Source: Candidatus Falkowbacteria bacterium
GTDB lineage: Bacteria; Patescibacteriota; Patescibacteriia; Patescibacteriales; UBA12465
Direction: 5' to 3'
Assembly: GCA_026396805.1 (NCBI GenBank)
Contig: JAPLVZ010000012.1
Location: forward strand, 8,127-72,126
Length of the DNA stretch: 64,000 bases
Shown: positions 10,177-62,949 of the stretch, piece after piece
How positions within the stretch are numbered: the stretch's first letter is position 1
How the letters are laid out: every line of letters starts with the position of its first letter
Notes under the pieces: generated by a model
What the model was told of the DNA's origin: nothing
Seen by the model: the letters and a program-made list of their open reading frames with translations, nothing else
The model's database searches: none
Translations under genes and position numbers: made by a program

Positions 10177-11265
10177 ATGATTATGTCACACCCCAGAGAT
10201 GGCTTTCCCTTGTCTTTGTATCAGACCAAGGTGGAAAGCTTGACGAAGAAGTTTAATCTTATGAACCCCGCCGATCGCCGCGAATATTTCGAGGCCAAGG
10301 TCGGTCGCGAAATCGCGGATTTAAAAGAGCATTTTAAAACCAATACTTTCATCGCCTATTGGTTAGGCAAGAAAAATTCCGGCAAGGGTACTTACTCTAA
10401 ATTGATAATGGAAATATTCGGCGCCGATAAGATAAGCCATATTTCAGTCGGCGACATCGTTCGTCGTTTGTCCGTTGATTTAGAAGATCCGAAAAAAAAG
10501 GAAGACTTGTTAAAATATTTTGCCGAGCATTATCGCGGTTATATTTCCATTGATGATGCCATTGCCGCTTTTCTCAACCGGGATACGGCTTCTCTTCTAT
10601 CGAACGAGTTTGTCTTGACTTTGGTGAAACGAGAAATTGATTTGTCGCCTAAAAAAATTATTTTTATTGACGGTTTTCCCCGAACCCTGGACCAGGTTTC
10701 CTACGCTTTGTATTTCCGAAATTTAATTGATTATCGCCAAGATCCGGATATTTTTATAGCGATAGATATTCCGGAAAATGTTTTAGATGAACGCATGCGC
10801 GCCCGGGTAGTCTGTCCGATTTGCCAGACGCCGCGCAATCTAAAGTTATTGGCCACTCCGGAAGTCGGTTATGACAAGACCAAAAAGGAATTTTATTTGA
10901 TGTGCGATAATCCGAATTGTAATAAGGCGCGAATGGTGGCCAAAGAAGGGGACAGTTTGGGAATCGAGGCGATTCGCGACCGCCTGGAACTGGATGACGT
11001 CCTGATTAGAAAGGTCTTTTCTTTGCATGGTGTTCCTAAAATAATGTTGCGCAATTCCATCCCGGTAAGCGCCGCTCGCGAGTTAATTGATGATTATGAA
11101 CTGACCCCGGCCTACAGTTATCAGCTAGAAGGTGATAAAGTTAAGACAATCGAGGGTCCCTATGTGGTTAAAGATGATGAAGGAATAGATTCTTACAGTT
11201 TAATGGCTCCGGCCGTTGTTATCCCTTTGATTAAACAACTTCATTCTGTTTTAATCAAAAAATAA
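10177..11265 (+). CDS. Adenylate-kinase-family protein with N- and C-terminal extensions
   Basis: P-loop GKKNSGKGTYSK, an FIDGFPRTLDQ motif (compare AK LDGFPRT), and a Zn-type LID with CPIC...CDNPNC. At 362 aa it is much longer than canonical Adk. Confidence 0.6.
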   Translation: MIMSHPRDGFPLSLYQTKVESLTKKFNLMNPADRREYFEAKVGREIADLKEHFKTNTFIAYWLGKKNSGKGTYSKLIMEIFGADKISHISVGDIVRRLSVDLEDPKKKEDLLKYFAEHYRGYISIDDAIAAFLNRDTASLLSNEFVLTLVKREIDLSPKKIIFIDGFPRTLDQVSYALYFRNLIDYRQDPDIFIAIDIPENVLDERMRARVVCPICQTPRNLKLLATPEVGYDKTKKEFYLMCDNPNCNKARMVAKEGDSLGIEAIRDRLELDDVLIRKVFSLHGVPKIMLRNSIPVSAARELIDDYELTPAYSYQLEGDKVKTIEGPYVVKDDEGIDSYSLMAPAVVIPLIKQLHSVLIKK

Positions 11266-21474: not shown

Positions 21475-24400
21475 ATGCTTTCAGAATTACTGAAACAATT
21501 GAATAAGGAACAGCAAACAGCCGCGACTCACGATCAGGGGCCGCTTTTAATAGTCGCCGGCGCCGGTACGGGCAAGACCACGGTTCTGATAAACCGCTTG
21601 GCTTATCTGATAATGGAGAAGAAAATAAAAACTGACGAAATTCTGCTCCTGACTTTCACGGAAAAGGCGGCCGGGGAATTGGAAGAGAGAGCGGACAAGA
21701 TTTTGCCTTACGGCTATGTGGATTTATGGATTAATACTTTCCACGGGTTTTGTGAACGAGTACTAAGAGAATTCGGTTTGGATATCGGGCTTAATCCCGG
21801 TTTTAAACTCTTAAATTCGACCGAGCAATGGGTCTTAGTCAAGAAAAATTTAAATCGTTTCAATTTGGATTATTATCGGCCTCTCGGCAATCCGACTAAA
21901 TTTATTTCGGAGCTGTTGCGGCATTTTTCCCGCCTGAAGGATGAAAATATTTCTGCCGCGGAGTATTTGAAGTATGCGGAAGAGTTGGAGTCTGATCAGG
22001 ACGCCAGATTGAGCGGGAAAAAAATAGGTAAAAAAGTGCTGGTCCTGCCAAAAAAGAAGCCAGTGGCGGCTAAAACGGCCGGCGAAGAAGATGACGACGG
22101 CGAAGAATTGGAAATCGGACGCATTCGAGAATTGGCCGACGCTTATCATACTTATAATCAATTATTGTTGGAGAATAATTTTTTGGATTTCGGCGATTTG
22201 ATCGTTTATGTCCTTAAATTATTCAAAGAGCGGTCAAATATTCTGAAATTTTATCGCGCGAAATTTAAATATATCATGGTGGACGAGTTTCAGGATACGA
22301 ATTGGGCGCAATATGAGTTAGTGAAGATGCTGGCCGCGCCGAAAAATAATTTGGTGGTTGTGGGCGATGATGATCAGTGTCTGCCGGGCGATGCTTTAGT
22401 TTTGACTAAAACCGGACAGAAAAAAATTAAAGACATCAAGACGGGCGATGAAGTGGCGACGGCCGTCGGAAAAGGAAGTTTGAGTTATAGTCGGGTCGGG
22501 CATGTTAATAAAACAAAAAAAATCGCGTTGTTATTATCATTCGTTACTAAATCCGGCAAAAAAATAACAGCGACCGATAATCATAAAATGTTCTGTTTCA
22601 TGCCCAGAATCTCCGGTAAGGAATATTTTTATGTTTATCTGATGTTCAAACAGGAATTAGGCTGGCGTTTGGGCATGACTAATGATTTGGCGCTGCGCTT
22701 AAGGCTGGAAAGGTCGGCTGATAATATTATCGCCGTTGGCTGTTATCAAACTATGGCCGAAGCGCGCTATCAGGAAGTATTATTATCTTTGAAATATGGC
22801 ATCCCCACGGTTTGTTTTCAGGAGAGAGACGGTATAATGGATAAAAAGATTTGGAGTTCCAAATTATATAAAGAATTGGATGTGGCGGCCGGTATTCATC
22901 GTTTAGCCCAAGATTTGAATATTGATTTAGAAGCCTCACCCTATTGTTTGGAAGCGGTCAATCGCGGGAACAAATTGCGGATAAAAATCCATTTGGAAAT
23001 GTGTTATCGGAAATATCATTCCAAGGTCGCCAAGAACGGTTTTCTTATTAATCCCGCCGTGGCACATTTATTATCAATCGACACTAGCGATCAACTGACG
23101 ATTCTTAAATTAGAGAAGATGGGTTTTAAAATCAATCCCAGCCAAACCGGTCGGAGATTGCGTTTGACCAGTCCGGATTTAAGCTATTTAGGAAAAATAG
23201 CGCGCCAGGTTCAAAAAGAAATCGGCGGATTCATAGAGCCGCAGATGAAAATTGGCAAGGTTAAAGAAAAATTTTTAAAATCTATAATCGTCCCGGCTAA
23301 AAATATTTTTCCCGGCATGTATTTGCCGATTGTGACGGATGGGGGCGTTATTTATGATCAGATTGTCAGCCGTCAAGAAAACAGGCGAACAGGTTACGTT
23401 TATGATTTAGAAGTTAATCGGACTCATAATTTTGTGGCCAACGGCATCTTAGTCCACAATTCTATTTATAAATTTCGCGGCGCTTCGCTTTCTAATATTA
23501 TGCAGTTCAAGGATGATTATCCGAAAGCCGAAGAGATTATTCTGACGGCCAATTATCGTTCGCGCCAAGCGATTTTAGACTATGCTTATCGCTTTATTCA
23601 AAACAATAATCCCAATCGTCTGGAAACCAGATTAAAGATCGATAAGAAACTTGTCGCTCAAGGCGAGATCAATAAAATTAAATCCGCGGGGCCGGCCGTG
23701 AAGTTTTTGAATTTTGAATCGGCTCATGACGAGCTGTCATACGTCGCGCGGCGGACAGTCGAACTTCATGAAACGGATAACGGTCAAGGGGCGAGCACGG
23801 GAGAAACTAATTGGTCGGATTTCGCGATTCTCGTGCGCGCGAACGATACGGCCGAAGCTTACGTTAAGGAATTGAGCCGTCAAAATATTCCCAACCAATT
23901 TATGTCTTGGCGCGGACTTTATTATAAGCCAATTATTTTAGATATCTTAGCTTTTTTCAGGTTACTGGATAATTATCATGAATCCGCCGCGCTTTTTCGC
24001 GTTTTGAATATGGAAATATTTAAAGTGGCGCACCTTGATCTCGTGAATATCAATAAAACGGCGGTGCGCAAAGTTTGGTCTTTGTATGAAGCTTTAAAAA
24101 ATATCAACGCGATTTCCGGCGTCAGCCCCGAGAGTGTCAAGAATATCAATAAGCTTTTGGCGCTGGTTGAAGAGTTTTCAAAAATGGCGGCGACAGCCAA
24201 ACCGACTAAGATTTTTTTGCGCTTCGCTTACGATTCCGGGCTGCTCGTCGGGCTAGATCATGACCGGGACCTGGAATTATTTTCATTTTTAAACCAGCTT
24301 TATCAGAAGATAAAGACCATGGAAGAAACCGAACCGGATTTGCGCTTGGGAGAATTTCTTTCGGCGATAAATATGGAGCTGGAAGCGGGTGAAACCGGTT

Positions 24401-25656
24401 CTTTAAAACTGGATTTCGCCGACAGTGACGCGGTTAAAATTATGACGGTCCATGGCGCCAAAGGCCTGGAGTTTAAATACGTTTTTATTGTTAACCTGGT
24501 GGATAAGAAATTCCCGACCGTCGCCCGCAGCGAAAAAATTTCTATTCCCGACGCTTTGGTTCGCGAAAAATTGGCGGAAGCGTCAGACGCGCATCTGGAA
24601 GAAGAACGCCGATTGTTCTATGTGGCGGCGACGCGCGCTAAAGCTGAATTATATCTGACCGGTGCCAAAGACTACGGCGGAGCGCGTGAGAAGAAGCCGT
24701 CGCGCTTTATTGCCGAGATGGGACTCACGAGTGCCATCGGGCCGGAACTGGCGCTAAGCGAGAAAAACGAATTTTTGCGCGATTTGCATTATCTTAACGC
24801 CCGCGAACTGGCGCCGCTTGAAAAAAGCGCGGCGGAAAAATATCCGCTCCCGGATAAATTTTCTTTTTCGCAATTGGCGGCCTATTCAATTTGTCCGCTC
24901 CAGTATAAATACGCTTTCATTTTAAAAATTCCCGCCTCCACCGATAAGGCCTCGCTCATTTTCGGACGGGTGCTCCATAATACTTTATATAATTTCTTAC
25001 TCCCCTTCTTAAGCGAGCGAAAAATACTACAAGGTGATTTGTTCGCCGGATCGGAGGCATCCGCCGGTAAAAACGCGTCGGGAAAAACTGGAGCCAATCT
25101 TCTAAGCGAAGCGAGATTAATGGAATTATACGCGGAGTTCTGGCGGGCGGACGGTTACGCCTCCAAAGAAGAGCGGGAGAAATATAAGATTAAGGGCCGT
25201 GACGCTTTGAAAAAATTCTTGTCTGCTTATCAAGTGGCGTCGAGCAAGACGGAAATATTATTTTTGGAGAAGAAATTTTCTTTTAAGATCGGCAGTGACG
25301 TCATTAAAGGAGCGATTGACCGCGTTGATAAGCTCGGTGATGGAACTTTAGAGGTTATAGATTATAAAACCGGAAAGAATCGGGCGAAATTGGAGTTTAA
25401 GGATAAGCGCCAATTAATCCTGTATCAATTGTTTCTGGAAGAATTTTTGGGAGTTAAAGTCAGCGCCTTGAGTTATTATTATTTGGAGAGCGGCGAAAAG
25501 ATTTCGTTTATGGCGACGGCTAAAGATATCACTAAATTGCGCGTCAGTGTCATTGAGGAAATCGCGGCTATTAAGAAACGGGATTTTACACCGACGCCCT
25601 CGCCAATGTGTCAGTTCTGCGATTTTAATTCAATTTGTGAGTTTAGAGAGGTTTAA
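21475..25656 (+). CDS. UvrD/PcrA-type SF1 helicase fused to a C-terminal PD-(D/E)XK nuclease with Fe-S cysteines (AddB/Cas4-like), interrupted by an intein
   Basis: 1393 aa. Motifs are AGAGTGKTTV (Walker A), MVDEFQDTN, VVGDDDQ|SIYKFRGAS (motif III split by the intein), the nuclease motif IDRVD...EVIDYKTGK, and Cys ligands C...CQFCDFNSIC. Confidence 0.9.
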   Translation: MLSELLKQLNKEQQTAATHDQGPLLIVAGAGTGKTTVLINRLAYLIMEKKIKTDEILLLTFTEKAAGELEERADKILPYGYVDLWINTFHGFCERVLREFGLDIGLNPGFKLLNSTEQWVLVKKNLNRFNLDYYRPLGNPTKFISELLRHFSRLKDENISAAEYLKYAEELESDQDARLSGKKIGKKVLVLPKKKPVAAKTAGEEDDDGEELEIGRIRELADAYHTYNQLLLENNFLDFGDLIVYVLKLFKERSNILKFYRAKFKYIMVDEFQDTNWAQYELVKMLAAPKNNLVVVGDDDQCLPGDALVLTKTGQKKIKDIKTGDEVATAVGKGSLSYSRVGHVNKTKKIALLLSFVTKSGKKITATDNHKMFCFMPRISGKEYFYVYLMFKQELGWRLGMTNDLALRLRLERSADNIIAVGCYQTMAEARYQEVLLSLKYGIPTVCFQERDGIMDKKIWSSKLYKELDVAAGIHRLAQDLNIDLEASPYCLEAVNRGNKLRIKIHLEMCYRKYHSKVAKNGFLINPAVAHLLSIDTSDQLTILKLEKMGFKINPSQTGRRLRLTSPDLSYLGKIARQVQKEIGGFIEPQMKIGKVKEKFLKSIIVPAKNIFPGMYLPIVTDGGVIYDQIVSRQENRRTGYVYDLEVNRTHNFVANGILVHNSIYKFRGASLSNIMQFKDDYPKAEEIILTANYRSRQAILDYAYRFIQNNNPNRLETRLKIDKKLVAQGEINKIKSAGPAVKFLNFESAHDELSYVARRTVELHETDNGQGASTGETNWSDFAILVRANDTAEAYVKELSRQNIPNQFMSWRGLYYKPIILDILAFFRLLDNYHESAALFRVLNMEIFKVAHLDLVNINKTAVRKVWSLYEALKNINAISGVSPESVKNINKLLALVEEFSKMAATAKPTKIFLRFAYDSGLLVGLDHDRDLELFSFLNQLYQKIKTMEETEPDLRLGEFLSAINMELEAGETGSLKLDFADSDAVKIMTVHGAKGLEFKYVFIVNLVDKKFPTVARSEKISIPDALVREKLAEASDAHLEEERRLFYVAATRAKAELYLTGAKDYGGAREKKPSRFIAEMGLTSAIGPELALSEKNEFLRDLHYLNARELAPLEKSAAEKYPLPDKFSFSQLAAYSICPLQYKYAFILKIPASTDKASLIFGRVLHNTLYNFLLPFLSERKILQGDLFAGSEASAGKNASGKTGANLLSEARLMELYAEFWRADGYASKEEREKYKIKGRDALKKFLSAYQVASSKTEILFLEKKFSFKIGSDVIKGAIDRVDKLGDGTLEVIDYKTGKNRAKLEFKDKRQLILYQLFLEEFLGVKVSALSYYYLESGEKISFMATAKDITKLRVSVIEEIAAIKKRDFTPTPSPMCQFCDFNSICEFREV
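22378..23460 (+). mobile_element. Helicase intein (361 aa) without an obvious LAGLIDADG pair
   Basis: CLPGDALVLT at the N-terminus, block B TDNHKMF, and C-terminal VYDLEVNRTHNFVANGILVHN followed by Ser+1. Both junctions are in frame with 21475. Confidence 0.85.
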
Positions 25657-26735: not shown

Positions 26736-26875
26736 AGGGGAATTAATATAATCCGGTTGAGTTTTTATGGAAAATTATAAAATAATCTTGGGGATAGTTG
26801 TTTACTATTTTTTATTTGACTAAGATTAATAAAAGTGCTTTAATATTAGAGGAATATACATAAATAAATATCCAT

Positions 26876-27749: not shown

Positions 27750-28706
27750 ATGAAGATTCTGATTACCGGCGGCGCCGGATTTATCGGCTCGCATCTCTGT
27801 AAACGGCTCCTGGAAGAAGGAAATGAAGTAATCTGCCTGGATAATTTTTTTACCGGCGACGAGGCCAATATCCGGCCGCTTTTGAAAAATCCGAAATTTG
27901 AACTGCGGCGGCATGATATCACTTCCCCTTTAAACATAGAAGTTGATCAAATTTACAATTTAGCCTGCCCGGCTTCGCCCATCCATTATCAATTTGATCC
28001 GGTCCAGACTACAAAAACCTCTGTTTATGGCGCTATTAATGTCCTGGATTTGGCGAAAAGAACCAAGGCGACGATACTTCAGGCTTCTACTTCCGAAGTT
28101 TACGGCGACCCCGAAGTCCATCCTCAACCGGAAACTTATTGGGGCAAGGTCAATTGCATCGGAATCAGATCTTGTTACGATGAGGGGAAACGTTGCGCCG
28201 AGACTTTGTTTTTTGATTATTATCGTCAATACAAAACTGATATCCGGGTGATACGGATTTTTAACACTTACGGACCGAATATGCACCCCGGTGACGGCCG
28301 CGTTGTTTCTAATTTTATCGTTCAGGCCTTGAAAAATAAAGATATCACGATTTACGGCGACGGTTCGCAGACCCGCAGTTTTCAATATATTGATGATCTT
28401 ATTGAGGGGATGATTAGGATGATGAATAATCAGGAGAAATTTATCGGTCCGATTAATCTCGGCAATCCGGAAGAGTTTACCATTAAGGAACTGGCAGAAA
28501 CGGTTTTGCGGCTGATTCCGGAGAGTAAGAGTCGGATAATCTACAAAGATTTACCGGCTGATGACCCGCGGCAGAGAAAGCCGGATATAACCCTGGCTAA
28601 GACGAAACTGGGCTGGGAACCGAAAATAAGGCTTGAAGAGGGGCTGAAAAAGACGATTGAATATTTTAGGAAGGGAGTGAAGTGTCCGAAAAAATCGGAC
28701 AGTTGA
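27750..28706 (+). CDS. UDP-glucuronate decarboxylase (UDP-xylose synthase)-like extended SDR
   Basis: GGAGFIGSH and YDEGKRCAE (YxxxK) motifs, with strong overall resemblance to UXS. The last ~11 codons come from repeat R1. Confidence 0.85.
28683..28701. repeat. Hairpin D (Bro-type): tgtccga aaaaa tcggaca
   Basis: Perfect 7-bp arms. It covers the last codons of the UXS gene. It is homologous in position to hairpin C in R2, but with different, compensating arm bases. Confidence 0.8.
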
Positions 28707-28744
28707 AAATGTTGGCTCAAGACGGAAAAACGCGTGAAACTCAT

Positions 28745-28772
28745 AAAAAAAGGCGGCTAGGGCCGTCTTTTT
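28745..28772 (+). terminator. Rho-independent terminator inside R1
   Basis: aaaaaggcggc / gccgtcttttt stem (one G-T pair) followed by a T-run. Confidence 0.7.
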
Positions 28773-28824
28773 GGATAGAGGAAAAGGGGGCGCTATTATT
28801 TATCATTAGCTAGAAATTTCGGTT

Positions 28825-28841
28825 GGTTACAATTTGTAACC
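28825..28841. repeat. Hairpin F: ggttacaa t ttgtaacc
   Basis: Perfect 8-bp arms with the same acaatttgt core as the Bro-type hairpins. It is intergenic, 8 nt from the RhuM stop. Confidence 0.75.
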
Positions 28842-28848
28842 GTTTCTA

Positions 28849-29793
28849 TTACTTTTTTAATCTTTTTTGATTATACTTCGCCAATTCTAATCTAACTTTC
28901 TCCTCCATATCGTCACGAGACACGGCGCCGGCGTTATTTAATACTTTTTCCTTATTAAAGATTAGAAACTCGTTCAATTCATTAACCCAATCTCTCATAT
29001 ACATTAATCTTTCTTTAACGCTTTGCAGTTCGGCAAAAGACAAGAATTGCTCTACCAGTAAATTCAGTCTCTTAAGCTCCAATTCTTCCAGATAATTTTT
29101 AGCGATTTCCGCCTGTTCGCGAGTAATAATTTCCCCTGGCCAATTAGTTAAACCGAGGTTTTCCTTAGAGCTGTCTATCCGACTGTTAACTATCTCCGCG
29201 TCCGTCAGTCCGCTGATGGCATAATGGAATTTATTCTGCACCATCGCAAAAAATTTCTGGGCGTAATCGGTTTTAGGGCTATAATCAACGCTAAGGGCAA
29301 AAATGTCTCTGACTTTTTGATAGAAATTAGCCTCCGAGGTTCTTATCTTTCGGATTCGCTCTTTCAATTCCTGAAAGTATGATTTGGCGACCTTACCGCC
29401 GGCTAATCGCTCATCGTCCATCACGAACCACTTGATAATATACTCTTTTAGCTTTTGAGTCGCCCAGATGCGGAATTGCGTGCCGCGGAGGGAATTAATC
29501 CGATATCCGACCGAGATAATCGCGTCTAGGTTATATAAATTTACGGGTCTTTTCACCTCCTTATTTCCTTCTTTTTGAACTATCAAGTATTCCTTGATAG
29601 TTTGGTTTTCGCTAAGTTCAGCCTCATTAAACACATTTTTTAAATGTAGATTAATATTAGCGACGCCGCAATTGAATAACTCTGCCATTTGAACCTGACT
29701 TAACCAAACAGTCTCATTTTCAAGCTTAACTTCCAGTTTCATCTTCCCGTCTTCCGTGCTGTAAATAATGATTTGATTGTTTTTGTCATTCAT
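28849..29793 (-). CDS. RhuM-family protein (full length)
   Basis: 314 aa. The family-typical blocks WLSQVQMAELF, YNLDAIISVGYRINSLRGTQFRIWATQKL and DDERLAGG are present. ggaggcgga (SD) lies upstream of the ATG. Confidence 0.85.
   Translation of the reverse strand: MNDKNNQIIIYSTEDGKMKLEVKLENETVWLSQVQMAELFNCGVANINLHLKNVFNEAELSENQTIKEYLIVQKEGNKEVKRPVNLYNLDAIISVGYRINSLRGTQFRIWATQKLKEYIIKWFVMDDERLAGGKVAKSYFQELKERIRKIRTSEANFYQKVRDIFALSVDYSPKTDYAQKFFAMVQNKFHYAISGLTDAEIVNSRIDSSKENLGLTNWPGEIITREQAEIAKNYLEELELKRLNLLVEQFLSFAELQSVKERLMYMRDWVNELNEFLIFNKEKVLNNAGAVSRDDMEEKVRLELAKYNQKRLKK
29578..29602. repeat. Intragenic hairpin in RhuM copy 1: aactatcaag (5-nt loop) cttgatagtt
   Basis: Perfect 10-bp arms. 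The frame was checked against the ORF, and it encodes TIKEYLIV. Confidence 0.9.
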
Positions 29794-29943
29794 AAGATTT
29801 GCTCCGCCTCCGCTTATTGGCGGCCACGCGGATTAAAATTAATTATTATATTATTCAGCTTAGCAAAACAGCGATAAAGCCAAGTTAAATAAAAAATAAA
29901 GGATTTTTTTATTTGACGCCGGAGACGGAAGTGAAGTGGTCAC

Positions 29944-29968
29944 AAACCGTGACAATTTGTCACGGTTT
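29944..29968. repeat. Hairpin E (Bro-type): aaaccgtgacaa t ttgtcacggttt
   Basis: Perfect 12-bp arms. In one frame it reads QTVTICHGF, which parallels QLSTICRQL of the Bro-N-like genes. Confidence 0.85.
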
Positions 29969-29985
29969 CGTTAAGGAAGTGAGTC

Positions 29986-30002
29986 TGTCACAAAATGTGA
30001 CA
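29986..30002. repeat. Hairpin C (Bro-type): tgtcaca aaa tgtgaca
   Basis: Perfect 7-bp arms. Relative to hairpin D, two arm positions changed on both sides and pairing is kept (cg/cg becomes ac/gt). Confidence 0.8.
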
Positions 30003-30044
30003 AACTGGAGATGTTGGCTCAAGACGGGAAAATGCGTGAAACTT

Positions 30045-30074
30045 ATAAAAAAGACGGCCAGAGCCGTCTTTTTG
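30045..30074 (+). terminator. Rho-independent terminator inside R2
   Basis: aaaaaagacggc / gccgtcttttt perfect stem followed by a T-run. The G-T pair of R1 is an A-T pair here. Confidence 0.7.
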
Positions 30075-30174
30075 AATAGGGGGAAAGGGAACGCTATTAC
30101 CGTCTTTTAGAAACGCTTTTTATCAGTCCGATGACTCCTCTCCACGCTTAGTTTATATTCATCTATTCTCTTTA

Positions 30175-30372
30175 CAAAATGTGTTTAATGAGGCTGAGCT
30201 TAGCGAAAACCGAACTATTCGGAAATTCCGAATAACTGCCGCTGACGGAAAAACATATGATACTAATCTTTATAATCTTGACGTAATTATTTCCGTGGGT
30301 TACCGAGTTAACTCTCTCCGTGGCACTCAATTCCGTATTTAGGCAACCCAGAAGCTAAAAGAATAAATAATA
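30175..30372 (+). pseudogene. RhuM relic (internal fragment with two nonsense codons)
   Basis: Translates QNVFNEAELSENRTIRKFRITAADGKTYDTNLYNLDVIISVGYRVNSLRGTQFRI*ATQKLKE*IIK. TGG became TAG at 30340-30342 and TAT became TAA at 30364-30366, relative to the intact copy. Confidence 0.75.
30216..30234. repeat. Hairpin in the RhuM relic: tattcgga aat tccgaata
   Basis: Perfect 8-bp arms at the same codon position as in the other RhuM copies. It encodes IRKFRI. Confidence 0.85.
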
Positions 30373-30446
30373 AAATTTTATAGAACTTATCCAATTGTCG
30401 CGACACTGTCACGACAATTAAGCTAGTCACATTATGTTGAGTTAAT
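30373..30446 (+). pseudogene. DUF1016/YhcG relic fused in frame to the RhuM relic
   Basis: Reads FYRTYPIVATLSRQLS*SHYVELIEL, compared with FYRAYPIVQTVSAQLSWSHYVELIEL in the intact gene 500 bp downstream. Confidence 0.7.
30392..30420. repeat. Hairpin in the DUF1016 relic: caattgtcgcgaca c tgtcacgacaatta
   Basis: 12 of 14 arm positions pair. Three arm bases differ from the intact copy on each side, and two of the three pairs are restored. Confidence 0.8.
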
Positions 30447-30447
30447 T

Positions 30448-30482
30448 GAGCTCCTTTGTGAAGAGAGAGGGGGCTCTTTTTT
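30448..30482 (+). terminator. Rho-independent terminator
   Basis: gagctcc (30448-30454) pairs with ggggctc (30470-30476), followed by T6. Confidence 0.6.
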
Positions 30483-30551
30483 GTATGGAAAAGCAGTTTG
30501 TCCGATGTTTTCACGTCAGAAAAAGTCTTTATCTTTTCTTCATATCCGGTT

Positions 30552-30560
30552 TGGTATAAT
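30552..30560 (+). promoter_or_regulatory. Extended -10 element (tggtataat) upstream of the DUF1016 gene
   Basis: TGnTATAAT lies 30 nt upstream of the ATG at 30590. No clear -35 was seen. Confidence 0.35.
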
Positions 30561-30589
30561 AGGGTGATTATTATTAATCATTTAAATTT

Positions 30590-31585
30590 ATGAAAAAAGT
30601 AAAAATCAGCGGAATTAATAAAAGCCTGGCAAATCCAAGCGATTATGGGAATCTATTACATGAGTTAAAAGGAATTATTATTAAAGGACAAAACAAGGCC
30701 TATAAAGCCATAGATAATATTAAAGTCCAGACGTATTGGCAGATAGGCGAACGGATAGTTAGGGAGGAATTAAAAAATAAAGATAGGGCTGAATATGAAA
30801 AGTATTTAATAGAGAATCTGGCCGTAGATCTAAATATTGGCAAACGCGTTTTATATGAAATAGTTAAATTTTATAGAGCTTATCCAATTGTGCAGACAGT
30901 GTCTGCACAATTGAGCTGGTCTCATTATGTTGAGTTAATTGAACTAAGTGATAATAAAGAACGTCAATTTTACGAAAGTAAGATAGTAGCTAACTCCTGG
31001 TCTATCCGGGAACTTAAAGAGCAGATTAAAAATCGTCTCTATCAGAAAACCGATGACAAAGAAAAGGAAAAAATGTTAAAAACCAAGCTTCCGGCTGTAG
31101 TCGACCTGCAAAAAATATTCAAGCCCGATTACGATTTTAATTTTTTAGAAATAGCGCCCAGCCATCAAGAAAAAGAGCTGGAAGATAAAATCATTTCCAA
31201 TATCGAATATTTCCTCAAGGAATTAGGTAATGATTTTATGTTTCTGGGTCGACAAGTACCCATATTAATCGATAATGAGAAGCATTATATCGATTTAGTC
31301 TTGTATCATCGCGGCATTCCTTGTGTTATTCTAGTCGATCTTAAGGCTGATAAACTAGATAGCCGCGATATCGGTCAAATGAATAAATATATTGGCTATT
31401 ATCGCCATAATAGACAGTATGTTTACGAAAACGACACTATTGGCCTTATTATCTGTAAAGAACTGGGTCATGAAGAAGTAATCTATGCTTTAGACGGTTT
31501 AGAGGAAAAGATATTTGTTTCTCTATATAAAACAAAACTGCCAAGCGAAGAGAGAATTAAACGAGCGGTGAGAGGGATAAATTAG
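30590..31585 (+). CDS. DUF1016/YhcG-family PD-(D/E)XK nuclease-like protein
   Basis: 331 aa. The N-terminal block is IVQTVSAQLSWSHYVELI. The C-terminal core is YIDLVLYH...VILVDLKADKL (D...DxK). Confidence 0.8.
   Translation: MKKVKISGINKSLANPSDYGNLLHELKGIIIKGQNKAYKAIDNIKVQTYWQIGERIVREELKNKDRAEYEKYLIENLAVDLNIGKRVLYEIVKFYRAYPIVQTVSAQLSWSHYVELIELSDNKERQFYESKIVANSWSIRELKEQIKNRLYQKTDDKEKEKMLKTKLPAVVDLQKIFKPDYDFNFLEIAPSHQEKELEDKIISNIEYFLKELGNDFMFLGRQVPILIDNEKHYIDLVLYHRGIPCVILVDLKADKLDSRDIGQMNKYIGYYRHNRQYVYENDTIGLIICKELGHEEVIYALDGLEEKIFVSLYKTKLPSEERIKRAVRGIN
30885..30913. repeat. Intragenic hairpin in the DUF1016 gene: caattgtgcagaca g tgtctgcacaattg
   Basis: Perfect 14-bp arms. The frame was checked, and it encodes PIVQTVSAQL. 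Confidence 0.9.
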
Positions 31586-31724
31586 CAGAATTTCCCTAAT
31601 CCGCTCTTCCGCAAACCCCTTAAATGAGGCATTCTTTTTTATTTGACTAAGCTTAACAAAAGTGATTTAATATATACAGATAATCGCCCAATAAAACAGT
31701 TGAAAAAGAACTGTTTATTTAAAT

Positions 31725-33678: not shown

Positions 33679-36621
33679 ATGAAAATATTCATCTCATATC
33701 CGCCGCTGATTTCGGAGAAAGGAATTCCGCTTTTGAGCCAGAATCGCCAATTCCAGTGGTTCAACAGCCCGACCTATATCTATCCGGTTATCCCGGCTTA
33801 TTTGGCGACCCTACTGAAAGAGGCGGGCCATGAAGTCGTCTGGGACGACGGCATCGCTGAGGGTTTGCGCTATGGAGACTGGGAGAAGCGCCTATTGTCG
33901 GCGCATCCGGATTTGATTTTTTTTGAAACCAAGACTCCAGTCGTCAAACGGCATTGGGCGATTATCAATGATCTGAAAACTAAATTAGCGGCTAAGATCG
34001 TCCTGTTGGGCGACCATGTCACGGCCGAGCCGGAAGAAAGCTTGCGTTATTCCAAAGTTGACTATGTCCTGGCCGGGGGCGACTATGATTTCGGCGGCTT
34101 GAACCTGGTTCGGTTTTTAGCCGGCGAAGCGGAACTGGAGCCGGGCTGGCACTGGCGGACGGGTGGCGAGTGGCAGGCGACGAGCGACAATCAGGAGATT
34201 AACTGGCGGGACGGAGAATTCAAGGCTTTGAAAGCCGCATCTAGCGGCGAGAGGCAGAATTATGCCGCCCAGAATCTAGATACCTTGCCCATGATTGACC
34301 GCGAGCTGACCAATTGGCGGCTTTATGCCTATAAGAATGGCAATTTTAAATACATGCCCGGCGCCTATCTGATGAACGCCCGCGATTGTTGGTGGGGGAG
34401 GTGTAGTTTCTGCTTGACCGGTGAAGCGCAAGTTTTAACCATCAAAGGCGCTAAAAATATAGCGGATATAGAAAAAGGAGATCGAGTTTTAACCCATTTG
34501 GGAAATTATAAAAAAGTTAATGAAACTTTAAAAAGAAATTATGAGGGCGAACTGATCGAGATAAAGACTAATTGTCTTATGCCTTTTAAAATAACGCCGA
34601 ATCATCAAGTGCTTAACTTGCCCTTGAAAGATTTAAGCCGTTGTTTAAAAGTTGGCCAGGCCGGCTATCTTTGTAAAAGCAATAATGATTTTTCTAAGCG
34701 CTTAGATTGCGCTAATTGCGAGCTCCCTAAACCCTATTTAAATTATAAGCCACAATATATAGAAGCGGGACAGATCAGTAAGGGCGATTATCTAGCCGTA
34801 CCGATAAACAGAGAAATTATTAAAACTGCCAAGTTAGATTTGAAAAAAATATTAAATCTACAACCAACAATCATCAACACTTGGAAAAAAATTGCCGATT
34901 CGCTTATCAAAGAGATTTTAACTCTTAACCAGCAAGGTAAAAGCGAAAGAGATATTTCAGTTCTTCTTAAAATTGACCGAGAAACCGTTCATCGCTATAT
35001 ATCTTTAGAAAAAGCCGAGCAATTAATCAATAAAAGTAATCCGCTTAAATATAAAGGTGGAAAAATAAGTTTTGAGGGAGGAAAAAATTGGCTGCCGGCG
35101 GACATAGTTTTAAAAGATGATGTTTATAGATTATTTGGTTATTACTTGGCGGAGGGCTGCGTTTCTAAACTAAAGAATCGGCCGAATTCCCTGGTTATCA
35201 GCCTTACTTTTAATCAGAAAGAGCGGGAATATATTGCCGATGTTAAAAAAATATTTGAAGATATTTTTAAGGTTGAGGTTAATATTAATCAGAATAAAGT
35301 TAACCATACAACCCAAATTACAGTCGGAAATTCTTTGCTGGCCAAAGTATTTAAGAATTTATTCGGCGATAATTGTTATAATAAAAGTCTGCCGGAATTT
35401 ATTATGAAGGCCGAGAGAGTAAAACAAGTAGAACTACTGCGCGGAATTTTTCGGGGTGATGCTCATTATCGACAGAGAGGAACTAGAGCGGAATATATTT
35501 TAAGTTCGGCCTCGGACAGCCTGTCGTCCCAATTAGTCATGCTTCTTTTAAGATGTTCGGCTATACCGAGCGTGAGGCGGACTAAGATAAGGGGGAAAAT
35601 GACTAAAGAACAAAATATTATTACTCTTTCCAGTATTGATATTATTAATTTGTTTGCCGAGAAAAAAAGGGTGGAAAAAGTTGAATCGCTTTATAAAAAA
35701 GGCTTTATTATCGGAAATTATGCTTATTTACCCGTAACGCGACTAAAAAAAGAGCAATATAAAGGAGCGGTCTATAATCTATCGGTTGATAAAGACCATA
35801 GCTACACGGCTAATTTTGTCGGCGTCAGTAATTGTTCCTGGACCACGCTTTTCCCCGGGCAGACTTTCCGCGTCCGCTCGGCCCGTTTGGCCTTGGATGA
35901 AGTCGGCCAGCTGATTGATTTGGGCGTCAAGGAAATCATGGAAGATTCCGGCACCTTGCCGGTCGGCCCTTGGCTGGAAGAATTTTGTAACGGCATGATA
36001 GAGCGCGGCTACAATAAAAAGATCGTCATGAGTTGTAATATGCGCATCAGCGGAATTAAGGATCCCGAAATCTGGAAGCTAATGAAGCGTGCCGGTTTTC
36101 GCTTTATCTTATTCGGTTTAGAATCGGCTAATCAAAAAACCTTAGACGCGATTAATAAAAATCTGAAAGTTGAAGAAATTGAACCGGGGCTAAGAATGTG
36201 CAAGGAGGCCGGTTTAGAGCCTCATATTACCGCCATGATCGGCTATCCTTGGGAAACTTATGAAGACGCTAAAAAAACCGTGGAATTAGCGAAGGATTTA
36301 TTTAAAAAGAACTGCGTTAATACCCTTCAGGGCACGGTTTTAATTCCATATCCGGGCACGCCGCTTTATGCGAAATGCTGGGCGGAAGGTTTATTGAATT
36401 TTACCGATTATGATCGTTTTGATCAAAGGGAGCAGGTTATGAAATGCCCCTTAACGACTGAACAAGTCAAGGAACTCACCCAGGGGCTATATAAGGCCTT
36501 TATGAGCCCTAAATTCGTCATTAATAAGCTAAAATCAATCAGAAGCTGGAGTGATATTAAATTCTTATGGATGGCCGGGATGAAGGTTCTAGGGCATTTG
36601 ACTGATTTCAGCAAGAAATAA
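33679..36621 (+). CDS. Class B (cobalamin-binding-domain) radical SAM enzyme, interrupted by an intein
   Basis: The extein is ~506 aa. It has an N-terminal B12-binding-like Rossmann region (DLIFFETKTP...VLLGDHVT) and a cluster motif DCWWGRCSF|C split by the intein. The C-terminal half is a radical SAM TIM barrel (FGLESANQKTL). Confidence 0.85.
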   Translation: MKIFISYPPLISEKGIPLLSQNRQFQWFNSPTYIYPVIPAYLATLLKEAGHEVVWDDGIAEGLRYGDWEKRLLSAHPDLIFFETKTPVVKRHWAIINDLKTKLAAKIVLLGDHVTAEPEESLRYSKVDYVLAGGDYDFGGLNLVRFLAGEAELEPGWHWRTGGEWQATSDNQEINWRDGEFKALKAASSGERQNYAAQNLDTLPMIDRELTNWRLYAYKNGNFKYMPGAYLMNARDCWWGRCSFCLTGEAQVLTIKGAKNIADIEKGDRVLTHLGNYKKVNETLKRNYEGELIEIKTNCLMPFKITPNHQVLNLPLKDLSRCLKVGQAGYLCKSNNDFSKRLDCANCELPKPYLNYKPQYIEAGQISKGDYLAVPINREIIKTAKLDLKKILNLQPTIINTWKKIADSLIKEILTLNQQGKSERDISVLLKIDRETVHRYISLEKAEQLINKSNPLKYKGGKISFEGGKNWLPADIVLKDDVYRLFGYYLAEGCVSKLKNRPNSLVISLTFNQKEREYIADVKKIFEDIFKVEVNINQNKVNHTTQITVGNSLLAKVFKNLFGDNCYNKSLPEFIMKAERVKQVELLRGIFRGDAHYRQRGTRAEYILSSASDSLSSQLVMLLLRCSAIPSVRRTKIRGKMTKEQNIITLSSIDIINLFAEKKRVEKVESLYKKGFIIGNYAYLPVTRLKKEQYKGAVYNLSVDKDHSYTANFVGVSNCSWTTLFPGQTFRVRSARLALDEVGQLIDLGVKEIMEDSGTLPVGPWLEEFCNGMIERGYNKKIVMSCNMRISGIKDPEIWKLMKRAGFRFILFGLESANQKTLDAINKNLKVEEIEPGLRMCKEAGLEPHITAMIGYPWETYEDAKKTVELAKDLFKKNCVNTLQGTVLIPYPGTPLYAKCWAEGLLNFTDYDRFDQREQVMKCPLTTEQVKELTQGLYKAFMSPKFVINKLKSIRSWSDIKFLWMAGMKVLGHLTDFSKK
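34411..35832 (+). mobile_element. Radical SAM intein (474 aa) with HTH and LAGLIDADG endonuclease domains
   Basis: CLTGEAQVLT at the N-terminus, block B TPNHQVLN, LAGLIDADG-like LFGYYLAEGCV and LLRGIFRGDAH, and an HTH-like GKSERDISVLLKIDRETVHRYI. It ends VYNLSVDKDHSYTANFVGVSN followed by Cys+1. Both junctions are in frame with 33679. Confidence 0.87.
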
Positions 36622-36806: not shown

Positions 36807-37940
36807 ATGGAAAATAAGCAAATAAAACGTGATATTGAAAAAAATATCAGAGATTGGTTATTTAAAGGTAAAATAATCATTCTTTATGGCGCGCGCCAAG
36901 TTGGTAAAACAACCTTGGCTAAAAAGCTTTTAAGAGAGCATGGTCGTCCGACAGATTATTTTAATTGCGAAATTTCCTCCATCAGATCGGCCTTGGAAAA
37001 AGAAGATCCGACAGCCTTAAAAAAGTTTTTAGGCGACGGTCGTTTGATTGTTTTAGATGAAGCGCAAAAAGTAAGTAATATCGGATTAATTTTAAAACTC
37101 CTGTTAGATACCTATCCGAATATACAGATTGTCGCCACCGGTTCATCTTCTTTTGATTTGGCCAATCAAGTTAATGAGCCCTTGACCGGCCGCGCCTTAG
37201 AATTCACGCTTTATCCTTTTTCATTGCGTGAACTTAAAAATTTCTATAAAAATTATGAGCTTGAAGGGCAATTGGAAAATTTATTGATTTATGGATTATA
37301 TCCGGAAATAGTAAAAAGCGATTCGACCAACGCTCGCCAGCTTTTAGATAATTTAAGCAATAAATATTTGTATCAAGATATTTTAATTTTTAATCGGATT
37401 AAAAAGTCCGGTTTGATTGTTAAATTACTGCAGCTCTTAGCTTTGCAGATCGGGAACGAGGTATCGATTAATGAATTGGCCGTTAATCTGCAATGCAGTC
37501 GCGATACGGTTGTTAATTATTTGGATATTTTGGAAAAAGCGTTTATTATTTTCCGTCTGCGCGCCTATAGCCGGAATCAGCGTAAGGAAATCGTCAAAAA
37601 ACAAAAAATTTATTTTGTTGATTTGGGAATCAGGAATAGTTTAATCAGCCGTTATAATGAACTGGCGGTTCGTGATGATGTCGGCGCTTTATGGGAAAAT
37701 TTTTGTATTATTGAGCGTTTGAAAAAAATTCAGGCCGATAATTTATATTGTCAAAAATATTTTTGGCGCGCAATCAGTCAAAAGAAAGTTGATTATGTAG
37801 AAGAATACAACGATCGTCTGGACGGTTATGAATTTAAATGGGGTAAAGGCAAGGCGTCGGCGCCTAAAGAATTTTTAGCTTATAAAAACAGTCGCGTTAA
37901 TTTGATAAATCGTGATAATTACCAAGAATTTTTAACATAG
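36807..37940 (+). CDS. AAA-type ATPase with a DUF4143-like C-terminal domain
   Basis: GARQVGKTTLA (Walker A) and VLDEAQ (Walker B). The architecture is typical of the AAA_14/DUF4143 family. Confidence 0.8.
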   Translation: MENKQIKRDIEKNIRDWLFKGKIIILYGARQVGKTTLAKKLLREHGRPTDYFNCEISSIRSALEKEDPTALKKFLGDGRLIVLDEAQKVSNIGLILKLLLDTYPNIQIVATGSSSFDLANQVNEPLTGRALEFTLYPFSLRELKNFYKNYELEGQLENLLIYGLYPEIVKSDSTNARQLLDNLSNKYLYQDILIFNRIKKSGLIVKLLQLLALQIGNEVSINELAVNLQCSRDTVVNYLDILEKAFIIFRLRAYSRNQRKEIVKKQKIYFVDLGIRNSLISRYNELAVRDDVGALWENFCIIERLKKIQADNLYCQKYFWRAISQKKVDYVEEYNDRLDGYEFKWGKGKASAPKEFLAYKNSRVNLINRDNYQEFLT

Positions 37941-38070: not shown

Positions 38071-38562
38071 ATGGAAAACCTAAATTCACAAATTGTAATA
38101 TATAAAGATCAAAATGGACATATCAAAATCGATGTTCGTTTTGATGGTGATACTGTCTGGCTGACCCAAGATCTTATATCAATTTTATTTAATAAAGCAA
38201 AATCTACTATAAACGAACATATAAAAAATATATATGCTGAAAGTGAGTTGTCAGAGCTAAGTTCAATGAGAAAATTCGGAAATTCCGAATTTTCTACAAA
38301 ACCTACTAATTATTACAACTTAGACCTAATTATCGCTGTTGGCTATCGGGTAAAATCACCCCAAGGCACTATTTTCCGCAAATGGGCCACCGAGAGGCTC
38401 TCGGAATATATTGTTAAGGGTTTTGTATTAGATGATGAGAGGTTAAAAAACCCGGATTTGCCGTTTGATTATTTTGAGGAATTAACCCGTCGCCTTGCGG
38501 ATATTCGCACAGAAATCTTGATGATATTAAATTTTTGTGGCGGGCGGGAACGAAGGTATTAG
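38071..38562 (+). pseudogene. RhuM-family gene truncated after ~147 codons
   Basis: The N-terminal 147 aa are RhuM-like (WLTQDLISILF, YNLDLIIAVGYRVKSPQGTIFRKWATERL, DDERLKNP). Homology stops at ...ADIRTE (~38513), and the remaining reading is out-of-frame radical SAM tail. Confidence 0.75.
38269..38295. repeat. Intragenic hairpin in RhuM copy 3: agaaaattcgga aat tccgaattttct
   Basis: Perfect 12-bp arms. The frame was checked, and it encodes RKFGNSEFS. Confidence 0.9.
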
Positions 38563-54337: not shown

Positions 54338-54502
54338 ATTAGAACTGGGGGTGGGATTTTGTGAGGAGGAAGAAAGATTTGATAGAGGTTGAGGAGGTTA
54401 GTGTTATTGAAGGTTAGGGGGTGGCGCTATGTGTCCGCTTGAGGGTCTGAGATGGTGCTGGGCGATTGTTTACGCAAGATAGGACTAAATTACATCAAAT
54501 TT

Positions 54503-55243
54503 ATGACTAATACTTACAAAATTAAAGATAAACTATTAATAATTGGCGACGGTCGTTATAGTAATGAAGAAATCATGGCATTATACAGAGAAATAGAAAA
54601 TCACATTTTTCGTTCGGAATTTAATGAAGATTTAAATGCTTGTCTTGATGATTGCTTACATAAGATTAAAGCAACCTGGTATCATCTTTCTACTATTAAA
54701 CAAGAGGTTGAAGAAATAATGACGCACCCGAAACATTATTTGCAGCAACAAGTTTTTCAGTCTTATCCAAAAATAGAATTTCAAGATAATCGTCTTATTT
54801 ATGAGATAGAAGCTTTTTTATTTCAGGTAAAAAGTAATTTGGATATTATCGTACAAGTCCTAACTTTCTTTTATCCTAATTTAAAAAGTGAAAATGCCGA
54901 TAGGCCTAATGGTTTTGATGGTAAAAAGAGGCTAGCTGGTTACAAAACAATTGAAAAGTTAACGACAGCTGGAGAGGCTAGATTAGCTGATTATTTTAAA
55001 GGGGAGGTAAGTGATTGGATTCAAGAAATGGTTGATTTGCGTAATACTGTCACTCACAAAACTCAACTGGAAAACTACCAGTCATTTTTAATAACGGAAA
55101 TGTTATCTAACGAGCTTGAAATAAAAACACCACTAATGCCTTCGGGGCAAAAAGTGGAAGTTTATTGTCAATTAGTTTTTGATAAATTATTAAATTTTTA
55201 TCGGACAGTGTTTGTAGATATTATTGGCGAATATAAAAAATAG
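54503..55243 (+). CDS. Hypothetical protein with a HEPN-like Rx4H motif
   Basis: ~246 aa, predicted mostly helical. MVDLRNTVTHK contains R-N-x3-H, as in Abi/HEPN families. The ATG at 54503 is preferred. Confidence 0.4.
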   Translation: MTNTYKIKDKLLIIGDGRYSNEEIMALYREIENHIFRSEFNEDLNACLDDCLHKIKATWYHLSTIKQEVEEIMTHPKHYLQQQVFQSYPKIEFQDNRLIYEIEAFLFQVKSNLDIIVQVLTFFYPNLKSENADRPNGFDGKKRLAGYKTIEKLTTAGEARLADYFKGEVSDWIQEMVDLRNTVTHKTQLENYQSFLITEMLSNELEIKTPLMPSGQKVEVYCQLVFDKLLNFYRTVFVDIIGEYKK

Positions 55244-62256: not shown

Positions 62257-62262
62257 GTGGGG

Positions 62263-62796
62263 ATGAAAAATAATTTTAAAAAAAATTTTGCTTATATTGA
62301 CGGCGCCAATCTTCATAAAGGAATAAAAGATTTTGGTTGGCGGCTGGATTATAAGCGTTTTCGCGTTTGGCTGAAAGAAAAATACTCAGTTGAATGCGCC
62401 TATTTATTTATCGGATTAATCCCAAAATATAAAGATTTGTATGCTTTTTTGCAAAAATCCGGGTTTACTCTTATTTTTAAAGAAACAACTTATGATGGTA
62501 ATGGCAGGGTGAAAGGAAATTGTGATGCCGATTTGGTTTTAGCGGCGGTACGTGATACTTTTGAAAATTCTTATTTTAAATCAGTTTTAGTTTCTAGCGA
62601 TGGCGATTACGCGGGTTTAGTGAAATTTCTTTTAGAAAAGAATAAGTTTAAAATTTTACTTTCACCGGATGAACATTGTTCGGTTCTATTAAAACGTACC
62701 AACGCCCCGATTTCTTATTTGAGTGATAAGAGAAATATCTTAGAAAATATTGATCGTCTTTATAAAAAAGCCCCCGATGCGGACAAAACCGCATAA
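62263..62796 (+). CDS. NYN (LabA-like PIN-fold) domain protein, copy 1
   Basis: FAYIDGANLHKG, NCDADLVL and VLVSSDGDYAGLV motifs. The ATG at 62263 is preferred to the GTG at 62257. Confidence 0.8.
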   Translation: MKNNFKKNFAYIDGANLHKGIKDFGWRLDYKRFRVWLKEKYSVECAYLFIGLIPKYKDLYAFLQKSGFTLIFKETTYDGNGRVKGNCDADLVLAAVRDTFENSYFKSVLVSSDGDYAGLVKFLLEKNKFKILLSPDEHCSVLLKRTNAPISYLSDKRNILENIDRLYKKAPDADKTA

Positions 62797-62898
62797 GGGT
62801 CTTTTTTGTAGTGATGGTTATATTTTATCACTTTTTAAAAATAAGTCAACCACCTGTATTAGTCCAACACATATTAGTCGAGTTTAGAAGAAAGCTTC

Positions 62899-62927: not shown

Positions 62928-62949
62928 AATTATTATTAATTTTAAATTT

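Follow-up and report, generated by a model that had tools for sequence, protein, structure and literature searches.

Why should a short hairpin, a spacer and a terminator occur twice, in direct orientation, on either side of a single defence gene? We examined this question in a 64-kb window, the whole stretch of DNA analysed here (64,000 nucleotides of contig JAPLVZ010000012.1 from a Candidatus Falkowbacteria bacterium; G+C content 39.9%), in which two direct repeats, R1 and R2, flank a minus-strand RhuM gene downstream of the gene for UDP-glucuronate decarboxylase (UXS). A preliminary description of this DNA had offered three readings of the repeats: a small RNA (sRNA) gene, a mobile cassette boundary, or a recombination scar that retains a selected structure. 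The last comes closest to our findings, in that both repeats are Bro-N gene fragments and their hairpin is constrained across the whole Bro-N family. The explanation that we favour, and consider probable, is that the repeats are recombination relics which now act as predicted terminators, and that their palindromes are elements at the nucleic-acid level where rearrangements join. Loci and contigs fetched for comparison with the window are labelled L080-L175.

The repeats themselves are real. An alignment of the two regions gave a mean column identity of 81%, in line with the roughly 80% first reported, and a 26-nt core (GCTCAAGACGGRAAAAYGCGTGAAAC) is present in two copies in the window, against none expected from 100 shuffles. 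Their bounds had to be shifted slightly, the best being 28672-28800 for R1 and 29974-30101 (plus strand) for R2. The layout described for each repeat, a hairpin followed after about 45 nt by a canonical terminator, was borne out in both copies. The R1 hairpin (tgtccga/tcggaca, 28683-28701) has 7 bp and a 5-nt loop, that of R2 (tgtcaca/tgtgaca, 29986-30002, SVTKCDKLEMLAQDGKMRET) has 7 bp and a 3-nt loop, and the two align without gaps on a common centre. Compensated changes had been reported for both stems. In the hairpin this is correct, as both sides differ at 5 of the 6 shared pair positions, whereas the terminator change from G-T to A-T is there yet one-sided.

The terminator stems (28747-28772 in R1, 30048-30073 in R2) comprise 11 bp and a 4-nt loop, with an A-run before and a T-run (TTTTT) after; as GC-rich stem-loops followed by a T-run, they have the features of predicted intrinsic terminators. 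Because the A-run precedes and the T-run follows the stem, either could act on both strands. Folding yielded -36.7 kcal/mol for R1 (z -3.2) and -39.9 kcal/mol for R2 (z -3.05), and both terminator stems are present in the lowest-energy and the centroid folds. Only the R1 stem was also folded on the minus strand, where it formed as well, and it could therefore end the transcripts of the convergent UXS and RhuM genes, between which it lies; besides folding, it is represented in repeat families D2 and I3. A simple terminator scan overlooked both structures owing to its stem rules. Each repeat closes with a tail, which in R1 is 28 nt long (28773-28800) and homologous both to the R2 tail (to 30101) and to L081:5708-5748.

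The upstream part of each repeat is derived from a Bro-N gene. In an ungapped alignment, R1 and R2 match a 75-nt stretch of 68 Bro-N gene segments, which comprises the EGSEV flank, the hairpin and the codons for LK(L/M)xAxDGK(M/T)RET, and a Bro-N hairpin profile detects both repeats (nhmmer; E=9e-10 for R1 and E=2e-10 for R2). The homology is limited to about 70 nt (EGSEV...RET; 28672-28741 and 29974-30043, plus strand) and stops right after GAAAC, where the terminator starts. That the repeats resemble Bro-N genes had been recognised earlier, with the homology taken to begin at the hairpin; it begins about 14 nt before it, at GGAAGTGAAG, which encodes EGSEV. The peptide reads EGSEV, hairpin, LKMLAQDGK(T/M)RET, with a 1-nt frameshift ahead of the hairpin in R2. 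Identical to the R2 hairpin (VTKCDKL) is that of an intact Bro-N open reading frame (ORF) in L080, and the R1-type hairpin recurs in the window at 62899-62927. Homologous to intact genes and truncated at both ends, R1 and R2 are, judged from their sequences, two copies of one relic, in which a central piece of a Bro-N gene, about 70 nt long, is fused to a two-way terminator and a 28-nt tail. The preliminary description would have recognised plain gene remnants by an intact Bro-N gene at this exact site in related genomes; none was found there, and plain homology nonetheless shows that the repeats are gene remnants. As the hairpin is the palindrome of the gene family, the differences between R1 and R2 would amount to two palindrome alleles and are not evidence of functional RNAs.

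Could the repeats nevertheless be expressed as RNA? Under such an explanation R1, R2 and a nearby DUF1016 fragment would be sRNA genes, or RNAs derived from 3′ untranslated regions, that mimic the hairpin of Bro-N or DUF1016 mRNA and titrate or guide an RNase, a regulator or the protein. The same layout of palindrome, 35-45 nt and terminator does occur three times in the window, namely in R1, R2 and the DUF1016 fragment, and the DUF1016 version is kept in three strains (the window, L081 and L083). R1 would ride on the UXS transcript, fold z-scores are about -3, and the stems of RhuM genes, described below, have an excess of G-U on the sense strand. However, a promoter scan of the region returned four promoter-like matches, fewer than in shuffles and none of them before R1 or R2, while the promoter copy before E, a further Bro-N relic adjoining R2, ends after its -35 box. 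Scanning the whole window at the Rfam gathering thresholds gave no match, the unit is missing from close relatives and from the other 178 loci fetched, and the frameshifting indels between R1 and R2 are typical of decay. The sRNA gene first suggested is not borne out by these data, and we hold an RNA of this kind to be the least probable of the explanations weighed here. Among individual Rfam candidates, STnc430 scored 22.9 and 18.1 bits on R1 and R2 (gathering threshold 47, E about 1), driven by the A-run and the terminator, and E-value scans of 28600-31000 placed BASRCI337, LhrC and others on the terminator below threshold and at chance level; all were rejected.

In intact Bro-N genes the hairpin is an in-frame palindrome. 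The window holds two such genes in tandem (55454-56161 and 56204-57046, plus strand; Pfam Bro-N, PADLOC PDC-S13); their palindromes lie at 55641-55677, where 18 bp are paired, and at about 56400-56430. From a reference-genome collection we retrieved 80 relatives of the first, whose protein keeps 64-79% identity in Patescibacteria, Proteobacteria, Nitrospirota, Omnitrophota and Planctomycetota, among others. The stem measures 13 to 18 bp; in the first window gene it is CTTCAACTGTCGACAA-T-TTGTCGACAGTTGAAG and encodes LQLSTICRQLK. In an alignment of 70 rows (68 gene segments, R1 and R2), 89.6% of cells in the 13-bp stem are paired, whereas shuffles give 76% and sliding the partner gives 28-43%. 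Changes on both sides are found at 10 of 13 pairs, in 128 cells, and the covariation score was reached by 0 of 500 shuffles. Resampling of synonymous codons led to an expectation of 6.6 of 13 pairs against 11.3 observed, a value attained in 65 of 13,600 resamples. Some of the arm changes are synonymous (CAACTG/CAGTTG versus CAGTTG/CAACTG; TCG/CGA versus TCT/AGA) and others are not (STxCRQ, VTxCHG, FTICKQ, FPFWEQ, VTNCHR), so that the protein follows the DNA. Of the 68 genes, 39 retain even the innermost pair, and mismatches in the stem occur on both strands without bias (U-G 20, A-C about 16).

RhuM genes carry a palindrome of their own, at a fixed distance of 42 or 32 nt before the YNLD motif. 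In the intact RhuM gene between the repeats (28849-29793, minus strand; PADLOC PDC-S05; Pfam PF13310, E=4e-96), whose protein had no record in an exact database look-up, it lies in frame at 29578-29602 and encodes QTIKEYLIVQ. Among 67 distinct metagenomic genes, 10.1 of 11 positions are paired, whereas the best sites of control windows have 7.1 (maximum 9); synonymous-codon resampling predicts 7.0 of 11, and 145 of 6,700 resamples reach the observed value. The peptides encoded are highly variable (TIKEYLKV, TTEESSVV, TIRKFRIV, SVCLESKHT, TVSKMEIV, TCKEFLQV), and many of the palindromes have a 1-nt loop. Plasmid RhuM genes from Aliarcobacter, Vibrio, Roseomonas, Methylocystis and Parabacteroides have the palindrome too, three of them situated between hsdM and hsdS; a Ligilactobacillus RhuM gene has none. 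Stem mismatches on the sense strand comprise 35 G-T and 13 A-C, counts that are not corrected for shared ancestry and in which a few clades dominate.

The third family is YhcG/DUF1016, where the palindrome stands just ahead of (Q/E)LSW(S/T)HY in 11 of 11 genes and fragments checked. An intact member, encoding a PD-(D/E)XK nuclease, is present in the window at 30590-31585 (plus strand; PADLOC PDC-S02), with its palindrome at 30885-30913 (PIVQTVSAQL). Escherichia coli K-12 yhcG (L086:9828-10955) has three tandem in-frame palindromes, at nt 303-329, 338-372 and 375-413, which have the core CAGAC-N3-GTCTG and 12-17 paired bases per arm, against a maximum of 11 in codon shuffles. In other E. coli alleles (L173, L174, L175) there are one or two units. 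An allele cut inside the arm of the third palindrome is adjoined by a small "transposase" ORF, for which no Pfam match was found. The 13-nt arms of one E. coli unit are the same as those of the window gene, which comes from a bacterium of the candidate phyla. In viral contigs, a single DUF1016 protein query found no relatives and an alignment query only 3.

Within the 64-kb window, all GC-containing palindromes with at least 12 pairs belong to these three families or are terminators. Pairing is kept, both sides change, and this goes beyond what the protein explains, in Bro-N genes and by extension in RhuM and DUF1016; at the level of sequence comparison, the palindrome is constrained as nucleic acid in all three. 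As to the kind of nucleic acid, signs are mixed, since symmetry to a 1-nt centre points to DNA and the G-T excess of RhuM to RNA. Many arms contain 6-bp palindromes (GTCGAC, GAATTC, CAATTG, GTGCAC), and many others do not. Members of all three families reside as single genes in defence islands and in type I restriction operons. PADLOC lists them only as candidate single-gene defence systems, and RhuM and DUF1016 have been reported only as neighbours of invertible genes (Milman et al. 2023). A literature search of incomplete coverage found no published account of palindromes inside RhuM, DUF1016/yhcG or Bro-N genes, and a genome-wide survey of inverted repeats in E. coli does not mention yhcG. 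The in-frame palindrome of these genes is apparently both widespread and undescribed.

Its symmetry extends to DNA that no longer encodes a protein. An orthologous, non-coding DUF1016 fragment shows three different near-perfect palindromes in three strains, within flanks that are almost identical: GTCGCGACA-C-TGTCACGAC in the window, GTGCACGCA-G-TGCGTGCAC in L081 and GTCGCATC-GCT-GATGCGAC in L083. In the window this DUF1016_N fragment occupies 30365-30452 (plus strand; palindrome 30393-30419; repeat family D1) and has its own terminator, the unit ending at 30480. Its palindrome is exactly that of the intact gene of L081. Likewise, RhuM fragments of the window and L081 have their palindrome in common, with the stretch from palindrome to YNLD being of different subtypes. 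Near-perfect in relics and yet different between strains, the palindromes have therefore kept their symmetry and exchanged alleles irrespective of translation.

Survival in non-coding relics would also be in keeping with palindromes that have no function at all, template switching between the arms simply copying one onto the other, and R1 and R2 being junk with a useful terminator. That template-switch (quasi-palindrome) mutation gives rise to hairpins and preserves them, with perfect stems and compensatory changes of several bases, has been documented (Monttinen and Loytynoja 2022; PMC8794818), and our palindromes resemble its products in these respects as well as in their upkeep in relics without obvious function. 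In addition, the symmetry often reaches a centre of a single nucleotide, something not required of an RNA hairpin (the innermost pair in 39 of 68 Bro-N genes, and the many 1-nt loops of RhuM), and Bro-N stems have mismatches on both strands. Nevertheless, template switching is a generic process, and a purely mutational one should single out neither three gene families nor a codon position that is fixed in nearly all members from many phyla. Nor would it be expected that amino-acid sequence is given up for pairing (STxCRQ, VTxCHG, FTICKQ, FPFWEQ), and copying from arm to arm cannot create the new apex sequences found between close strains. Wholly functionless palindromes are thus, in our view, unlikely. 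Since template switching of DNA may produce or assist covariation, however, covariation alone is no proof of a functional RNA.

Dimeric proteins typically bind sites with dyad symmetry to the centre, and in all three families the palindrome is encoded within a putative DNA-binding domain. The palindromes might accordingly be operators, bound by the N-terminal domains of their own Bro-N, RhuM or DUF1016 proteins, which would bind orphan copies such as E, F, R1 and R2 as well; each gene would thereby have portable self-regulation, with R1 and R2 as extra or decoy sites. Bro-N palindrome relics are indeed found directly upstream of RhuM starts in the window and in L094, L098 and L100. The window example is a Bro-N relic with an R1-type palindrome (62899-62927), followed by a 93-aa ORF with the N-terminal part of RhuM (together 62890-63231, plus strand; perfect ORF palindrome 63140-63166); the orphan palindrome lies 20 nt upstream of this ORF, which is at 62950. 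E, too, is positioned upstream of the RhuM promoter region, both in the window and in L097. Against operators speaks the extreme diversity of the stems, in which only short cores (ACA-N3-TGT, CAGAC-N3-GTCTG, AACT...AGTT) recur, and an operator deep in a coding region, with 1-3 in-frame repeats in E. coli yhcG, would be unusual. Binding of the proteins to the palindrome is itself a prediction, and the Bro-N domains of phage antirepressors act via protein contacts. Taken together, self-carried operators appear distinctly unlikely. The 93-aa ORF sits between two NYN-domain genes (62257-62796 and 63266-63799).

How this collection of relics came to lie behind UXS can be approached through close relatives. 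The window UXS gene (27750-28706, plus strand; assigned by Pfam) has its closest proteins in Patescibacteria-type metagenome bins, and in five loci, L081, L082, L083, L084 and L085, UXS is 96-97% identical, with 311 aa and the ending ...EYFRK(R/G)GN*. None of the five has R1, the minus-strand RhuM gene or R2 downstream of UXS. The comparison of strains with and without the RhuM insert at the UXS 3′ end, which the preliminary description had called for, thus reveals relatives without the whole segment. Nucleotide homology to the relatives stops at about 28677-28680, within a short common motif (AGGAAGGGAG, followed by TGAAGTG), and to L081 at 28677. R1 therefore gives the window UXS a foreign tail, VKCPKKSDS*, from about 28681; this is 9 codons and the stop, and not the 11 codons proposed earlier. 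Taken alone, R1 and R2 are ordinary, being gene relics and terminators around a strain-specific insert. Their present role is most likely that of predicted terminators for the convergent UXS and RhuM transcripts, of insulators of downstream genes and, for R1, of a 9-residue foreign tail on UXS.

What follows UXS differs from one relative to the next. In L083 there are a terminator, a promoter and, on the plus strand, a 117-aa gene for the RhuM N-terminus that runs into a DUF1016 fragment, in L081 an AT-rich stretch and a shorter RhuM fragment, and in L085 only an orphan E-type palindrome with a T-run, before an AAA_14/DUF4143 gene. L081 does contain a homologous module elsewhere, upstream of the promoter of a UDP-glucose dehydrogenase gene. 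There the R tail is joined by a complete Bro-N gene on the minus strand, part of a RhuM gene and the upstream region. The window copy retains the -35 half of that promoter, in which its RhuM leader and upstream region (29794-29917, minus strand) ends. The closest relative of the window RhuM, with 85% amino-acid identity, is found in L097. Homology between these two loci covers only 28822-29968 and ends exactly at the outer edges of two palindromes, named F and E, which are themselves parts of Bro-N relics. F (ETVTNCNQPKFLAND; 28803-28846, minus strand, palindrome 28825-28841; found by nhmmer) resembles a Bro-N fragment in L094 and forms the left edge of the shared module, beyond which L097 has a Bro-N left flank and the window an inverted Bro-N right flank. 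E (EVKWSQTVTICHGF; 29918-29972, plus strand, palindrome 29944-29968 with 12-bp arms) forms the right edge; a single compensated pair sets it apart from the copy in L097, and together with R2 it makes up a tandem two-hairpin Bro-N fragment, to which a fragment upstream of RhuM in L100 is comparable. That the homology stops at F and E indicates a RhuM module delimited by palindromes, with R1 and R2 outside it. The suggestion of a mobile cassette boundary is consequently right in so far as the RhuM segment is strain-specific and modular, and wrong in placing the boundary at R1 and R2. At L100:2740-2945, upstream of a RhuM gene, three palindromes form two tandem Bro-N units and then an orphan of RhuM type (ACTACCGAGGATTCCTCGGTAGT); mixed relic clusters thus recur in other genomes.

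Such edges invite an explanation by transposition or insertion. The hairpins F and E resemble each other and point the same way, with GTTTC after each of them (family D9), and the module has different surroundings in each of the window, L097 and L081. A transposase that recognises hairpins, supplied in trans in the manner of IS200/IS605 or REP/RAYT, might use the palindromes as ends, or RhuM might have been inserted by a long target duplication with R as the target. Defence genes without a mobility gene, within long direct repeats of 46 bp to >400 bp, are documented for restriction-modification systems (Furuta, Abe and Kobayashi 2010; PMC2853133), and our locus is similar in having a defence-island gene without a mobility gene and direct repeats of about 130 bp overlapping a housekeeping 3′ end. 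In those reports, however, empty sites hold one repeat copy, whereas L081-L085, instead of exactly one, hold none, and the repeat here is a fragment of a foreign gene; R is therefore not a duplicated target in any genome seen. The ORFs scanned, beside the locus and in other parts of the window, include no transposase or integrase, ten further ORFs having yielded no recombinase. The hairpins, moreover, are ordinary internal parts of intact genes, and the flanks in L097, where no repeat search was made, have no duplication visible by eye. We regard both variants of this explanation as highly unlikely.

Two other known systems merit comparison. Integron attC sites, like our palindromes, keep a structure while the sequence varies, and tie an imperfect palindrome to a promoterless-style gene cassette. 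In contrast, the palindromes here are short, perfect or nearly so, have no extrahelical bases or bulges and lie inside the coding sequence, not after it; with no integrase among the ORFs scanned, an integron cassette was rejected. Rickettsia palindromic elements are sporadic in-frame insertions of 100-150 bp in many unrelated protein genes. They share with our palindromes the translation of palindromic DNA in proteins and the presence of extra in-frame units (1-3 in E. coli yhcG), whereas ours are 19-37 bp long and, in nearly all members, an integral part of the domain at one homologous position.

The closest parallel is with gene-replacement relics in a variable defence-gene spot. R1, R2, E, F and the RhuM and DUF1016 fragments are all partial copies of genes that are intact nearby, and frameshifts, stops, canonical terminators and a locus that differs between close strains are as expected for such a spot. 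Unlike ordinary relics, each of these is centred on the family palindrome, which is near-perfect while the flanks decay, something unexpected under ordinary gene decay. According to the reading that we prefer, relics joined at palindromes, the strain-specific segment of F, intact RhuM, upstream region and E would have been assembled by rearrangements among Bro-N, RhuM and DUF1016 genes downstream of UXS. The palindromes would be prone to form hairpins or cruciforms and to undergo template switching, and may act as joints for insertion, inversion, gain or loss of tandem units and allele swapping, given that each copy is both a direct and an inverted repeat of every other. Their symmetry would be held by constraint on DNA or RNA, probably assisted by self-templated repair, that is, template switching between the arms, which would explain the near-perfect palindromes in dead fragments.

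The locus also contains an inverted pair. A pseudogene fragment of the RhuM N-terminus (30171-30374, plus strand; palindrome 30216-30234) is an inverted copy of 29432-29644 in the minus-strand RhuM gene (I1, I2), the two being 94% identical up to the palindrome and 75% identical or unalignable beyond it. Inverting 29645-30170 would restore a truncated RhuM gene on the plus strand as in L083, and inversion may for this reason belong to the history of the locus. With copies of 75-94% identity, the arms would be too diverged for an active programmed switch, and no invertase was found.

Several observations weigh against relics joined at palindromes. Among the relatives, none turned up with just one, "empty" R copy, and the event that duplicated R can as a result not be reconstructed. 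As to extra recombination across the RhuM palindrome, the pairwise identities of flanking windows correlate at 0.41 across it, compared with 0.41-0.50 in control windows. The recurrent layout of palindrome, spacer and terminator could itself be selected, for example as RNA, and the G-T excess on the sense strand of RhuM hints at a role at the RNA level. Finally, there is no recombinase nearby, and nothing in these sequences directly displays breakage or recombination at a palindrome.

Why these three families should carry a palindrome is a further matter, for which a recombination joint, a self-carried operator and an mRNA processing site are all possible answers. As a tentative proposal, and one more likely to need revision than to stand in full, RhuM, YhcG/DUF1016 and the Bro-N genes of PDC-S13 may share an undescribed, built-in cruciform or hairpin palindrome in the codons of their DNA-binding domains, with a sequence that diversifies fast and a symmetry that is enforced. 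It might work as a recombination joint or as a self-carried binding or processing site, and R1, R2, E and F would be its by-products or decoys.

Some further features of the window concern the same families. A 163-aa ORF with only the N-terminal part of RhuM (38071-38562, plus strand) has a perfect palindrome with 13-bp arms at 38269-38295; it comes after an AAA_14/DUF4143 gene (36807-37940), and such a gene also follows the orphan palindrome of L085. In this clade of RhuM genes, a GC-rich, hairpin-forming insert of about 40 nt lies between an AT-rich leader (TAATTAATTTTAAT) and the start codon (window 29794-29835, minus strand; L097:2945-2990; L081:6950-6990), and it may be a translational control element. 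A promoter-like block, TTTTTTATTTGAC-TAAGnTTAAnAAAAGTGnTTTAATAT, is repeated before several operons (window 26820-26860, 29890-29917 and 31640-31680; L081:7050-7100 and 10545-10590), the copy adjoining E being cut off just after TTGAC. Directly upstream of the tandem Bro-N genes, a 263-aa ORF (54452-55243) has a weak, sub-threshold match to an Apea-like HEPN domain. Elsewhere, two very long ORFs encode a UvrD/PcrA-like helicase (1393 aa, 21475-25656) and a radical-SAM-like protein (980 aa, 33679-36621); from their translations, both appear to hold intein-like inserts (…QCLPGDALV…VHNS… and …CLTGEAQV…SNCS…, respectively).

In conclusion, three widespread and functionally obscure families of defence islands, including yhcG of E. 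coli K-12 and the RhuM genes between hsdM and hsdS, carry a palindrome at fixed codons whose pairing is kept at the cost of the protein sequence. Covariation that may arise from, or be assisted by, template switching at such palindromes calls for caution in screens for RNA structure. The palindrome differs between close strains, varies in copy number, outlasts the death of its gene and marks the edges of modules. If it is functional, it would offer a handle on how single genes enter, and move between, defence loci without a recombinase of their own, and on how the expression of these genes is controlled.

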